Positions 1,112 through 7,427 are shown, counted from the first letter of the stretch. The stretch is 18,500 nucleotides of DNA from a virus (IMGVR_UViG_2534682324_000033), one strand, 5' to 3'. The notes: generated by a model not told the origin, from the letters alone. Made by a program: numbers and translations.

Positions 1112-2962
1112 TTATGCTGCCGGTGCATTTATCTCCAGCATCAGACTTTCTATCTCAACGCCATACGCTGCATTTTTTGTAACATCCGTCAGCGTCAGCG
1201 CATTCAGTCCCAGTGTCAGACTGTCTTTTATAACCTGGAATGCCGGGCCAGCCACTCCATTCAGTTTCGGAGTAACCATGGCACTGCCGGCGGTGAACAC
1301 CAGCTCCAGCGTCTGCCAGTCGTTACCGTAATCGCCGAACTCCCCCAGCTTCGTGTTTCCGGCTTTCCTGTGATGCATCAGATTCACCCTGCCGTCAGTG
1401 GTCTGAGTGAAGTACGACATCAGGAACGGATTACCGGTACCCGTCATCGCCACACCATCAGGAACGGGAGCATCCGTATACAGATAAATCCCCAGCCCGA
1501 ACTGATTGTTGGTCAGTGCGCCTGACAGGCGGAACTTACAGGTCAGTCTGCCGCCCTGTGTCAGCAGGGTAATTGCGTCATCCACCGGATGCGTCAGGGA
1601 CCAGGTTTTATTGCTCTGCCTGGTGATCTTAAATACACCATCTGACAACTGAATTCCGCCATCCTTAATGCTCCAGCCCTGCGCAGCAGCCTCTCCGGCT
1701 GCCGGCAGCAGGGAGATTGTGCGAACGGACGTATCTGCAGACGGACCCGATGGCGTGTTGCCGCCGGGCGAGGGTTTGATTTCCGGTGCCTTACCACTGA
1801 TGAAGGCTGAGGTGCGCCCGGCTGCGTTCAGAATAGCGGTTGCCAGACGATCCGGAATAATGCTCCTGCGCGCCCATGAACTGAAATGTGTCGGGCGGTT
1901 TGATGATACCTGGTTTCCATTCGTTCTCGATGCCGCACCGTAATATCCTGATGCCGGAATATCCGGATCTTCTGCCGGCGCGTTAGTGGCGGTATTGACG
2001 CCGTTACCGTCTGTCATGAAGGGCACAAAATAAACGCCCTCACTCTCCCTGTTTTTATACCCGCCGTACACGGTGTCGTACTGGGTAGCGTATGTATTTT
2101 TCCAGTAATACGTCGTGTCACCACAAATCCACGGCACATCTGCAGCGCTGCCACCATGGCACTGCGCGTTAAACACGGAGAGGTCAGCACGAAACTGTGT
2201 CAGCATGGCTGTAAACAGCGCAGGTTGCTGTGCGTGGGTGGCGGCGCTCATGTCAAACTCACCCTGCATCCAGCAGACGGCCAGCAGAACGTTTTTGGGA
2301 TTTTTCTGCAATGCCGCTTTTGTGCGGGAAATCAGATCCTGATATAACGGCTTGCCCACCCCCCAGCGTGCCGAATCCTGACTGGCCCCCGTGGACTCGC
2401 TGAATGTCCCCTCCGCGCCCTGGGTAAATGCCGAACCACCACGACAGCATGGTACCAGCAGGATCCCCGCGTTATTCGGGATATACGGGAGCAGTTTTTT
2501 GGCAATATGTAAACCCTGGCCGACACAGCCGTACTGCCCTTTGCTCAGGTCAGCCCTCGGATGATTCAGCGTACTCATATCCTGCACATCATGCAGACAG
2601 TGGTCAGCCGGAATAATATCGTTATATCTGCAGGCAGCCCCGCCCGGCGTCACTGTACTGCGGCGCGCCAGCTGTTTAATGCGCGGATCCGGAGCATCGT
2701 ATGAATCCGGCAGCGGAAGCCCTTCACCGTAAGCCATGGCATTGGACTGCCCGGCCAGTACGATGACGTAGTACCAATCCGGCTCAGATGAAGGGCCGAC
2801 CTGTGGCTCTCCTTCAATAGCCACCGCCTGCATCAGTGTGTACGGCGTAATGGCAACCGGTCCGCCGTATGGCTGCCAGCCCTCTTTCAGTTTGTGTGTC
2901 AGCTTTTCCGCAAGGTCTGACGGCGACGCCGCCCTGACAACATCATAATGTTTAATCGACAT
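1112..2962 (-). CDS. nanS: phage-type sialate O-acetylesterase NanS-p (SGNH/DUF303 esterase with C-terminal extension), 616 aa
   Basis: 616-aa ORF; N-terminus MSIKHYDVVRAASPSDLAEKL... followed by the esterase core motif AGQSNAMAYGEG; sits downstream of the phage tRNA genes as nanS-p does in lambdoid/Stx-type prophages. Confidence 0.8.
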   Translation of the reverse strand: MSIKHYDVVRAASPSDLAEKLTHKLKEGWQPYGGPVAITPYTLMQAVAIEGEPQVGPSSEPDWYYVIVLAGQSNAMAYGEGLPLPDSYDAPDPRIKQLARRSTVTPGGAACRYNDIIPADHCLHDVQDMSTLNHPRADLSKGQYGCVGQGLHIAKKLLPYIPNNAGILLVPCCRGGSAFTQGAEGTFSESTGASQDSARWGVGKPLYQDLISRTKAALQKNPKNVLLAVCWMQGEFDMSAATHAQQPALFTAMLTQFRADLSVFNAQCHGGSAADVPWICGDTTYYWKNTYATQYDTVYGGYKNRESEGVYFVPFMTDGNGVNTATNAPAEDPDIPASGYYGAASRTNGNQVSSNRPTHFSSWARRSIIPDRLATAILNAAGRTSAFISGKAPEIKPSPGGNTPSGPSADTSVRTISLLPAAGEAAAQGWSIKDGGIQLSDGVFKITRQSNKTWSLTHPVDDAITLLTQGGRLTCKFRLSGALTNNQFGLGIYLYTDAPVPDGVAMTGTGNPFLMSYFTQTTDGRVNLMHHRKAGNTKLGEFGDYGNDWQTLELVFTAGSAMVTPKLNGVAGPAFQVIKDSLTLGLNALTLTDVTKNAAYGVEIESLMLEINAPAA

Positions 2963-3275
2963 CGAATTTCTCCCGTGTAGAGGAACAGAGTTAAAAAGCC
3001 GGAAGCGGAATCAAATCACAGGATGACCATCTGCCAGTGGCTGGTCGTAAAAAAAGGCCGCGCCATGCGCAGCCGAAAATAAAGGGATAACGATGATAGT
3101 TTGAGAAAAACAGAAATAACACTTTTGTGGCAAAGCATGGTGCCGGGTGCCTCCCGGTGAATTCAGTATCAGCACCTGAATCCGCGATTACCCCATATTC
3201 CTTCTTGCTGATTGCCCCACCGCACAGGGGGATTCACCATGCAGAAGTGTTTTTAATAAACAGCAAACAAAAAAA

Positions 3276-3443
3276 TCAAGCATTATGCAGGCTGTTTCTT
3301 TTTATCACCGGCCACAGCAATACCATAATGCCGCAGACCAGCACCCCATCCGCCAGCACCGACATGATTCTGCTGGTGAAATCCACCATCACCACCAGAA
3401 ACAGCAGGAGTGCAGCCACAGTCAGGCGCAGTTTTACCGTCAC
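3276..3443 (-). CDS. small hydrophobic protein (55 aa), GTG start overlapping the TerB-like stop codon
   Basis: Hand translation MTVKLRLTVAALLLFLVVMVDFTSRIMSVLADGVLVCGIMVLLWPVIKRNSLHNA; GTG at 3443-3441 overlaps the upstream TGA (3442-3440), suggesting translational coupling; below the ORF-track length cutoff. Confidence 0.3.
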   Translation of the reverse strand: MTVKLRLTVAALLLFLVVMVDFTSRIMSVLADGVLVCGIMVLLWPVIKRNSLHNA

Positions 3444-3872
3444 AGGTAATTCTCCAGACGAAGACCCAGAACACCGGCAATCTCTTCCAGCACCTTGCGC
3501 TCTTCCGGCTCAATTTCGCCGTCTGCCTCCGCAATGGCCACCGCCACATCCAGCACATCTTCCGCTTCACGCGTATCGTGTTTCACATCCTCGATCTCAC
3601 GTAACGCCGCACGACGACCAGTTTTAAAGTTCGTATCCAGCTGACCGATAATGGTTGCGCTAATCGCATTAATTTCTGACGTAAACGCGTACAGCGCAGG
3701 CTGATTACGCAGTACCTGTTCGATCTTCGCTTTCTCGGATGCCTCACATTCACCATCTGCACAGGCCACCAGGTATGCGGCGTTAATCACCACCTGTGCC
3801 AGATCGCGTTTTTCAAACTTTTTAATTTCCGTTGCCGCTCTGCGGGCTTTTTTTACCAAAAATACCAAACAT
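3440..3872 (-). CDS. TerB-like (tellurite-resistance TerB domain) protein; N-terminus out of frame at an A7 run
   Basis: ORF body ...AAYLVACADGECEASEKAKIEQVLRNQ...AEADGEIEPEERKVLEEIAGVLG is TerB-like; ATG at 3872-3870 with AAGGA Shine-Dalgarno encodes MFGIFGKK, then T7 on plus strand (3848-3854) shifts the frame; six A would give one clean ~146-aa ORF. Confidence 0.6.
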
Positions 3873-4215: not shown

Positions 4216-4291
4216 TGGTGGCCCTTGCTGGATTTGAACCAGCGGCCTGGCGATTATGAGTCGCTCGCTCTCACCACTGAGCTAAAGGGCC
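4216..4291 (-). tRNA. ileZ: tRNA with CAU anticodon (Ile2 lysidine-type or Met; ileZ-like)
   Basis: Hand-folded: acceptor GGCCCTT/AAGGGCC, D-stem GCTC/GAGC, anticodon loop CTCATAA, T-arm GCTGG-TTCAAAT-CCAGC, CCA encoded; first of three tRNAs downstream of the Q-like gene, the ileZ-argN-argO order of Stx-type phages. Confidence 0.75.
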
Positions 4292-4410
4292 GGGCGCAGG
4301 ATAATAACGTTACGAAATCAATGTTGCAAGCATTCAAGAATCACCTGGTTAAAAATTACCCTTGCTTCCTCCACCAGCGCATTCACCATGTCTATCCGAG
4401 ATAAGTGGCA

Positions 4411-4449
4411 CAAAAAAACCCGCTTGTGGGCGGGTTTTGTTTGCTTTTG
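4411..4449. terminator. bidirectional intrinsic terminator hairpin (candidate tR' for the minus strand)
   Basis: A7 run, stem AACCCGC (4417-4423) / GCGGGTT (4430-4436) with 6-nt loop, then TTTTGTTTGCTTTTG; gives a hairpin plus U-tract on either strand. Confidence 0.55.
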
Positions 4450-4489
4450 CCATCACGTACAAAATCGGCAAAATATCAGATTTGCATGA

Positions 4490-4518
4490 AATATATGCCT
4501 TTCAATCTACTTTTGCAA
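4490..4518 (-). promoter_or_regulatory. candidate late promoter (pR'-like) at the 3' end of the Q-like gene
   Basis: On the minus strand, -35 TTGCAA (4518-4513), 17-nt spacer, -10 TATATT (4495-4490); lies between the Q-like gene and the hairpin/tRNA cluster. Confidence 0.3.
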
Positions 4519-5191
4519 CACTTTGCTTTGAAAATGCCGCCTTTTGTTTTGAACGCGTTCTCATTACAAACAATAAAGCCTCACTATCCAGTCGGTGAAA
4601 AATGTGTTTCATTGCAACCCAGTGACGAGTAAATGTTTTGGACCAGTTTTTAGTTGTCACTCCCACCAGTAATGCCAGCTCCTTGTATTCATAACCTTCC
4701 CCACCAAAAAGTTCTGCTTTTACTGCCTGCGCCGCCAGCCAGATTAATTTTTTCAGGCGTTCCTGCGTTTTCCCTGCAATTTTTCTGGTACCGGATTGAG
4801 TATTAAATTCATTCCACGCCCACTGTGTTATCGCGATCTGATATTCCCAACAAATACTCCCGCTGTAACACCACAACAACCAGGCTTTATGATGTTCTTC
4901 AAGAGACAGAACAGCCCGCCGCCACGATGATGTCGAAAACTCAACCGGACTGACCAGAGGAATTGACGTCACCTTCGCCAGCGATTGCTTTCCCGGGATT
5001 GGTGGATTATCCCGCGTTATCATTTTTCCAGTCACTTCATCGCGGTACCGGATTTTTTTTCGCCTGTAACGCCCTGTATCGAACATGGCATTCTCCTGCC
5101 AGGCTTCAAGCTGACCTTTTGTTGCCCCACTCAAATCAGCGGTGGCGATAATGAGCTGCTCACGCACAAACTGTAAATAGTGGTTATTCAT
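4502..5191 (-). CDS. putative late-gene antiterminator (Q-like), 229 aa
   Basis: ATG at 5191-5189 overlaps the rusA stop (ATGA); position between rusA and the promoter/terminator/tRNA cluster matches Q of lambdoid phages (quuQ in K-12 Qin); no motif-level confirmation. Confidence 0.5.
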   Translation of the reverse strand: MNNHYLQFVREQLIIATADLSGATKGQLEAWQENAMFDTGRYRRKKIRYRDEVTGKMITRDNPPIPGKQSLAKVTSIPLVSPVEFSTSSWRRAVLSLEEHHKAWLLWCYSGSICWEYQIAITQWAWNEFNTQSGTRKIAGKTQERLKKLIWLAAQAVKAELFGGEGYEYKELALLVGVTTKNWSKTFTRHWVAMKHIFHRLDSEALLFVMRTRSKQKAAFSKQSVAKVD

Positions 5192-5547
5192 GCGCACTCC
5201 AGTTCTGTGATTTTTATCCCCAGCCGCTCACCAGGAACGAGCTGACCGCGCACAATATTGATTTCATCAAACTGCTCGTCGTCTATGAGAAGTCCGGCAT
5301 GCGTCAGCACATCCAGTGGTGCTTTCAGGATATTGTCCAGGTCACGACGGCGCTTATCCGGTGGCTCTGCAATAATCTTTATCACCAGCCTTCCGGACAG
5401 GTTTAATTTCAGCCGCTGCTGGCGAACAATAAGTGCCACATCCCGGCGATAACGCTCACCGGCTTTTGATACAAAATATGTGCTGCCACGACGTCGCCAG
5501 TAGGTGTTCACCGTCGGCGGGTAAGGCAAAACAAACTCTATACGCAT
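5188..5547 (-). CDS. rusA: Holliday-junction resolvase RusA
   Basis: 119-aa ORF with the RusA signature ...VLPYPPTVNTYWRRRG...PDKRRRDLDNILKAPLDVLTHAGLLIDDEQ... Confidence 0.9.
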   Translation of the reverse strand: MRIEFVLPYPPTVNTYWRRRGSTYFVSKAGERYRRDVALIVRQQRLKLNLSGRLVIKIIAEPPDKRRRDLDNILKAPLDVLTHAGLLIDDEQFDEINIVRGQLVPGERLGIKITELECA

Positions 5548-7056: not shown

Positions 7057-7212
7057 TTACTCCTCAGGTTCGTAAGCTGTGAAGACAGCGACCTCCGTCT
7101 GGCCGGTTCGGATTCGTACCTCGCAGAGGTCTTTCCTCGTTACCAGTGCCGTCACTATGACGGTAATACAGATGACGATCAGGGCGATTAACATCGCCTT
7201 TTGCTGCTTCAT
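7057..7212 (-). CDS. hokD: Hok-family type I toxin (HokD/RelF-like), 51 aa
   Basis: Translation MKQQKAMLIALIVICITVIVTALVTRKDLCEVRIRTGQTEVAVFTAYEPEE; AAGGAG Shine-Dalgarno 9 nt upstream of ATG 7212. Confidence 0.9.
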   Translation of the reverse strand: MKQQKAMLIALIVICITVIVTALVTRKDLCEVRIRTGQTEVAVFTAYEPEE

Positions 7213-7427
7213 AGCCTGCTTCTCCTTGCCTTTCGGCGCGTAAGAGGCTAACCTACATGTGTCTAGCATGAAATTGGCCTCAGATTAATGTTAGGCGTCT
7301 TGCAGGACGCGTAATGTTAACTGGGGCTTTTCTCTGTCTGCCTTACGGTGGCATGCCCGAGGCAGACAGCCTCAAGCACCCGCAGCAATTCTACTTAACT
7401 CTCGCTTTACCGCAAACCGTTTTTACC

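Follow-up and report, generated by a model that had tools for sequence, protein, structure and literature searches.

The Q antiterminator of phage 82 belongs to PF06323, the Q82 family, which is one of three unrelated Q families, and the Q82 mechanism is regarded as still unresolved (PMC9388147). The features of the phage 82 late promoter, pR', have been described: an extended -10 lies within a -10-like pause-inducing element, a GCC at +15 to +17 is required for pausing, and there is an AT-rich segment with a sigma70-dependent pause at +25/+26, where U occupies +25 (PMC5001585). That paper also cites initiation by slippage at 82 pR' (PMC5001585). The Q-binding element (QBE) of phage 82 lies between the -35 and the -10, inside the region from -31 to +30 (PMC4914094). 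In Stx phages, the pR' leader yields StxS, a working sRNA and a precedent for leaders as sRNAs, and in the Sakai Stx2a prophage a transcription start that drives the tRNAs has been mapped between tR' and stx2 (PMC7547250). On induction of 933W, the nanS-p homologue z1466 is strongly up-regulated together with the late genes (PMC8065619). An effect on invasion has been reported for IsrJ, a 74-nt RNA detected in Salmonella (PMC2330248); Gifsy-1 lysogens transcribe IsrJ at a high level in every condition tested (10.1101/787010).

Here we analysed a stretch of viral DNA of 18,500 nt (IMGVR_UViG_2534682324_000033, hereafter the window), in which positions 4412-4518 of the minus strand very probably form a phage 82-type late-gene control module of a lambdoid prophage closely related to Sp12 of the Sakai strain. 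The window matches Sp12 with 99.1% identity from position 1090 on, and the stretch that holds pR', tR' and the tRNA promoter pT is identical to it save one base at 4364. Sakai coordinates (NC_002695.2) equal the window coordinates plus 2236580, and because of this near-identity the published Sakai transcript-end maps can test the predictions made below. Sakai Sp10 was also considered as the counterpart and was rejected in favour of Sp12, its Q being a different protein of 184 aa. Most of the window recurs in at least 291 complete genomes of E. coli.

Both Sp12 and strain OK1 have genes for holin, endolysin, Rz and terminase after nanS-p. In the window, the homology to Sp12 stops about 20 bp past nanS-p, and the plus strand beyond holds the C-terminal part of an IS3-family transposase (584-1030) and an unrelated ORF for a membrane protein of 199 aa to which no family could be assigned (1-600). 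The holin, endolysin and Rz genes expected in 1-1090 are missing from the window. The late operon is thus probably truncated here, and Q-dependent read-through may no longer lead to lysis genes. Elsewhere in the window, Rfam matches at gathering level were obtained for sok, of the hok/sok toxin-antitoxin type (7207-7381, minus strand), and for DicF (14227-14278, plus strand), and close relatives annotate hokD/mokC, a relB/parE pair, dicB and ydaT. The sok, DicF, relB/parE, dicB and ydaT elements mark an immunity and early region of the Qin/CP-933P type.

The Q gene occupies 4502-5191 on the minus strand, with an annotated ATG start at 5191; the ORF called mechanically begins at a GTG at 5197, and the homologue in RefSeq is a CDS of 690 nt. 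Its product matches PF06323 over profile positions 2-217 of 220 (E 7e-92) and belongs to PHROG 304, 'anti-termination protein Q-like'. In tblastn comparisons, its identity along the whole protein was 76% with phage 82 Q, and the figure for phage 434 Q was 73%. A search of PDB sequences with Q returned no antiterminator structure, and the sole weak match was the unrelated phage lysin Ply (1xov, E 0.00055).

Direct reading and a promoter scan both placed a promoter-like sequence at the 3' end of this gene. The minus-strand sequence across the region reads gtgTTGCAAaagtagattgaaaggcaTATATTtcatgcAAATCTGATATTTTGCCGATTTTGTAcgtgatggcaaaagcaaacAAAACCCGCccacaaGCGGGTTTTTTTg. The -35 hexamer TTGCAA (4518-4513) lies within the final codons of Q, and it is followed by a 17-nt spacer, AAGTAGATTGAAAGGCA (4512-4496), and by the -10 hexamer TATATT (4495-4490). 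The stop codon of Q (TGA, 4504-4502) falls inside the spacer, which is the candidate Q-binding element. Relatives retain this spacer, and Gifsy-1 does so even though the spacer does not encode Q there; in most loci it also encodes the C-terminus of Q. Transcription is predicted to start at AAA (4483-4481), 7 nt past the -10. With +1 set at 4483, the GCC takes positions +15 to +17 and a T takes +25, as published for 82 pR' (PMC5001585). A transcript from this predicted start would begin with AAAUCUGAUAUUUUGCCGAUUUUGUA. Rfam alignments of isrJ and isrK with the window begin at 4486 and 4485, respectively.

Just past the predicted start lies TGaTATTTT (4478-4470, +6 to +14), an extended -10-like sequence (TG-a-TATTTT) that is predicted to act as a sigma70-dependent pause element; it defines phage 82-type promoters. 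By homology to 82 pR', the segment 4469-4458 would comprise the GCC at +15 to +17 (4469-4467), an AT-rich stretch and the pause site itself, T/A at +25/+26 (4459-4458). The comparison with 82 pR' is a match to features stated in prose rather than a sequence alignment, and the phage 82 record in the phage collection stops at the Q stop codon.

Downstream of the promoter, the minus strand carries an intrinsic terminator, tR' (4438-4412). Its hairpin, AAAACCCGC-CCACAA-GCGGGTTTT (4438-4415), pairs 4438-4430 with 4423-4415 around a loop at 4429-4424, has an energy of about -12.5 kcal/mol and is accompanied by a run of seven T (4418-4412). It begins 64 nt past the Q stop codon. The palindrome scores as a terminator on the plus strand too, and folding of 4485-4395 gave z = -2.7. 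At the equivalent place in phage 434, the annotators of that phage marked a terminator. An earlier note on this DNA had read TTGCAA-17-TATATT where the Q-like gene ends, followed about 45-60 nt downstream by a strong hairpin with a U-tract. Its coordinates and its description proved correct, the hairpin starting 52 nt downstream of the -10; the TGaTATTTT element was absent from that note.

A further sequence at this place concerns the opposite strand. TTGCaacactTTGC (plus strand, 4513-4526) fits the lambda CII-box consensus TTGCN6TTGC; it is antisense to Q and overlaps the -35 of pR'. The phage 434 annotators placed paQ at the spot equivalent to this CII-box-like sequence. The prophage carries immunity genes of the YdaS/YdaT type, and no obvious CII was seen in it.

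Single elements of the promoter and terminator carry little weight by themselves. The window contains 22 promoter-like sites against 21.4 expected from shuffled sequences, and 21 terminator-like sites against 20.2 expected, so that each taken singly is at chance level. The composite of promoter and pause element, TTGMAA-N17-NANNNT-N11-TGNTATNNT, has a single occurrence in the window against none in 200 shuffles, and it is not due to chance. It is on this composite, and on the comparison with relatives, that the case for pR' rests.

For that comparison, we examined the post-Q region of 11 other phages whose Q proteins are 51-73% identical to that of the window (434, PhiR47_2, CobraSix, ZC-S1, BHUENT6, KO-TP1, ST11-VIM1phi8.2, Kp4864-1, RothC, Gifsy-1 and phiES15). 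All 11 have the same layout: a -35, a 17-nt spacer, a -10, exactly 11 nt, TG(A/G)TATnnT and a GC-rich triplet. The -35 is TTGCAA in 10 of them and TTGAAA in phiES15, and the -10 appears at the same spacing as TATATT, TATACT, TACATT, CATATT or CAGAAT. With the window included, TG(A/G)TATnnT stands exactly 11 nt past the -10 in 12 of 12 loci, and 11 of the 12 have a terminator in the same position, the hairpin of ZC-S1 being weak. A clear terminator ends between +48 and +80 in 10 of the 11 other phages, and its hairpin varies in sequence between phages. Between genera, DNA similarity outlasts the Q stop codon and breaks off at about +10 to +16.

Gifsy-1 separates the module from the gene that it normally overlaps. 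There the module comes behind anrP, some 840 bp away from Q, and the homology begins exactly at the -35, so the conservation of the pR' module is not a by-product of coding for the C-terminus of Q. Between Q and the displaced module, Gifsy-1 (locus L091) carries isrK-orf45-anrP at 964-1800, with Rfam matches to the P1-type C4 antisense RNA at 1099-1182 and to its a1/b1 targets at 984-1036. The C4 and a1/b1 matches show that a P1 immI-like antirepressor cassette is inserted in the late control region of Gifsy-1.

The same pattern was scanned for in bacterial genomes, one genome per species, and 25 loci were found, nearly all of them in Enterobacteriaceae. The distance of 11 nt between the -10 and the TG is fixed in these loci by the design of the search pattern. 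A Q82-type ORF ends 13 nt into the -35 in 23 of the 25, and a terminator follows in every one, again with differing sequences. Near-identical sequences (79 in all, the window plus 78 viral-contig loci; 36 of the 79 are distinct) show no variation in the -35, in the -10 or in the start region. The 36 distinct sequences have no substitution in the 18 stem positions of tR', and three of the six loop positions vary. In one locus of this set, homology is lost right after the terminator, which marks a module boundary there. The sequence elements, their spacing, their conservation and the family of Q are thus direct observations, and together with the homology to phage 82 they strongly support the earlier note's proposal of a Q-dependent late promoter with a tR'-like terminator.

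By homology, a start site, a pause, Q loading and read-through can be proposed for this module. pR' would be a sigma70 promoter that overlaps the end of Q and is probably constitutive, with RNA polymerase starting at about 4483. The sigma70 retained in the early elongation complex would rebind TGaTATTTT, and the complex would pause near +25. Without Q, polymerase would leave the pause, terminate at tR' and free a leader of about 72 nt. With Q, made by the early operon, the protein would bind its DNA site in the spacer and load onto the paused complex, probably with the assistance of NusA. The Q-modified polymerase would resist terminators and could read tR', the tRNA cassette, the TerB/DUF3927 genes and the terminator at 3074-3056 into nanS-p; in intact relatives it would go on to transcribe the genes for lysis and morphogenesis. 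In addition, pT would serve the tRNAs as a promoter of their own.

The predicted terminated leader RNA of pR' (about 72 nt, 4483-4412, minus strand) corresponds in position to lambda 6S RNA, StxS and IsrJ. At gathering thresholds, Rfam gave no match in 4411-4520. At a relaxed threshold, the isrJ model (RF01393) aligned in full length with 4414-4486 at 24.5 bits (E 0.013), below its gathering score of 37, and isrK also matched the leader region in full length at a sub-threshold 22.7 bits. The predicted leader is therefore a positional equivalent of IsrJ and not a member of isrJ by the Rfam criterion. In six related phages (Gifsy-1, BHUENT6, KO-TP1, ST11-VIM1phi8.2, CobraSix and Kp4864-1), isrJ matched above threshold, with 54-100 bits, exactly on the promoter-to-terminator RNA. 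These matches lie at 1801-1907 in the Gifsy-1 locus (L091) and at about 638-748 in loci of Klebsiella and Enterobacter phages (L084 and L086-L089). The conserved 5' portion of isrJ, about 17 nt, coincides with the sigma70 pause element. High transcription of IsrJ in lysogens is what a constitutive pR' with termination at tR' would give. Against the assignment of the start, the published 5' end of IsrJ falls 2-3 nt further upstream than the one predicted by analogy with 82. We found no description of IsrJ as a late-promoter leader in the literature examined. HnrS (EcOnc10-12), a multicopy sRNA of 66 nt in Sakai Sp9, Sp10 and Sp12, was considered as the identity of the window leader and rejected, since HnrS lies between the Rz and terminase genes and not after Q.

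The promoter and terminator might instead constitute a stand-alone gene for an IsrJ/StxS-like, Hfq-dependent trans-acting sRNA in lysogens, with base-pairing rather than Q loading as its main function. The predicted RNA of about 72 nt would suit such a role, having a 3' hairpin with seven U and an A-rich stretch ahead of it; the full-length weak Rfam matches to isrJ and isrK, the effect of IsrJ on Salmonella invasion (PMC2330248) and the working of the StxS pR' leader as an sRNA (PMC7547250) point the same way. But what the genera have in common is roughly the first 17 nt, a DNA-level pause signal at a fixed distance from the -10, and the remainder of the leader turns over freely between genera. 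The isrJ score is also below threshold (24.5 against 37), and the Sakai Hfq-crosslinking data have no entry at the Sp12 leader, which is a weak point given that the screen skipped peaks within 100 nt of genes. We therefore consider base-pairing as the main function unlikely. An sRNA role is in any case compatible with the late-gene control module, as the sRNA role of StxS is a by-product of antitermination control.

A broader proposal, which we put forward as possible but rather unlikely, can also be made. The leader (4483-4412) might be made continuously in EHEC lysogens and act as an Hfq-binding, trans-acting sRNA like StxS, and the isrJ family, Salmonella IsrJ included, might consist of Q82-type late-promoter leaders whose conserved 5' end is a DNA pause signal and not an RNA seed. 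The presence of isrJ on Q82-type leaders may reinterpret a published Salmonella sRNA, and it would extend the idea, raised by StxS, of antitermination leaders as a source of sRNAs.

Beyond tR', the minus strand carries a tRNA cassette with a candidate Q-independent promoter, pT (4329-4301), which was identified by the scan and by homology to 933W. It consists of TTGCAA, 17 nt and TATTAT, followed by the GC-rich CCTGCGCC, and it ends ten bases ahead of the first tRNA. Window positions 4329-4285 align with 933W 21082-21126 and do not differ in the -35 TTGCA, the -10 TATTAT or the discriminator; the -35 of pT is exactly where the homology to 933W and to many Stx phages sets in. The 933W record annotates 'pT; putative tRNA promoter' at the equivalent site. 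The cassette (4291-4042) comprises three tRNA genes, with anticodons CAT (annotated ileZ), TCG (Arg, argN) and TCT (Arg, argO). The first of them (4216-4291, minus strand) was called Met (CAT) by ARAGORN; RefSeq and 933W give it as ileZ, a tRNA-Ile that reads AUA after lysidine modification.

The tRNAs are followed by a moron pair (3276-3872, minus strand), namely a TerB-like gene at about 3440-3872 and a DUF3927 gene at 3276-3443. Next come an STnc100 element (3271-3099; Rfam RF02076, 100.8 bits) and a strong terminator (3074-3056) with eight pairs, seven of them GC, plus T7 in the scan; together (3056-3271) they are a predicted second barrier before nanS-p. STnc100 recurs soon after the pR' leader in Klebsiella phages (828-1023 in L087 and L088) and directly ahead of the SASA esterase gene in phage 434 (3373-3577 in L001), and it looks like a conserved late-operon element, either a second barrier or a leader. 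The late-region gene nanS-p (1112-2962, minus strand) encodes a SASA-family sialate O-acetylesterase, with Pfam SASA, DUF1737 and DUF6645 matches and the RefSeq annotation. The scan gave no promoter-like site of its own for nanS-p, which stands behind two terminators.

The earlier note had placed the tRNAs, the TerB-like gene and nanS-p together under Q control, which was too broad. Since pT is homologous to 933W pT and a start has been mapped in the Sakai Stx2 prophage, the tRNAs are not solely Q-dependent and are probably made without Q as well. TerB and DUF3927 are possibly expressed without Q too, by read-through from pT, and transcripts from pT should stop at 3074-3056. For nanS-p, Q dependence stands as plausible, judging from its position behind that terminator and its lack of a promoter of its own.

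There is very little room for the alternative that the hairpin is a plain terminator of the early-right operon after Q, the hexamers are chance and the downstream genes use their own promoters such as pT: it can draw on the chance frequency of promoter-like and terminator-like matches in the window, on the hairpin 64 nt after the Q stop codon and on the separate pT of the tRNAs, but the -10, the start region and the pause element, which are noncoding, persist across genera with invariant spacing where their flanks do not, the whole module is detached from Q in Gifsy-1, and nanS-p and the lysis genes of relatives lie behind strong terminators with no promoter-like site of their own.

The phage 82-type module allows a precise annotation of the late unit of the common Sp12/CP-933P-type prophage, in which the promoter, its pause site, the terminator and the leader RNA can each be placed, along with a separate promoter for the tRNAs. 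It predicts that nanS-p is silent in lysogens, and that the tRNAs and perhaps TerB can be expressed there. The late switch is ordinary for a lambdoid prophage of E. coli O157:H7 and of the known phage 82 kind, and no new mechanism is implied.

Compared with the described systems, IsrJ of Gifsy-1 (RF01393) resembles the predicted leader in that it sits exactly between a Q82-type promoter with pause element and a terminator (L091, 1801-1907), is of the same length class and has the first 17 nt or so in common with it. The two differ in that the window RNA scores 24.5 bits against a gathering score of 37, in that its 3' two-thirds are unrelated, and in that the Gifsy-1 module is parted from Q by the inserted isrK-orf45-anrP cassette. 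The lambda system (pR', QBE, pause at +16-17, and tR' with 6S RNA) follows the same logic: a constitutive promoter with a sigma70-dependent promoter-proximal pause, a Q that is loaded from its site in the promoter DNA and, in lysogens, a short leader that ends at a terminator. However, lambda Q belongs to an unrelated family (PF03589), the lambda pause element is 9 bp nearer the start, and the leader is 194 nt in lambda against the 72 nt or so predicted in the window.

With 933W and Sakai Sp5 (Q933, pR', tR', StxS, pT, ileZ-argN-argO, stx2 and nanS-p), the window shares the gene order after Q, a homologous tRNA cassette and pT with identical -10 and discriminator, and nanS-p as a late gene. 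The Q family and the pR' sequence are different, and the stx genes are absent from the window; the leader of 933W/Sp5 is much longer, with a 3' end 258 nt from pR', and is processed to the 74-nt StxS. In phage 434, the spacer that forms the candidate QBE differs from that of the window at several positions. From phage 82 the window differs in about one quarter of the Q residues and in its cargo of tRNAs, TerB and nanS-p, after which the prophage looks truncated. As for the likeness to the phage 82 late region, Q is of the same family (PF06323, 76%), the promoter overlaps the 3' end of Q, the extended -10-like pause element and the GCC at +15 to +17 with T at +25 agree with the described features of 82, the predicted AAA start fits the slippage known at 82 pR', and an intrinsic terminator lies within about 75 nt.
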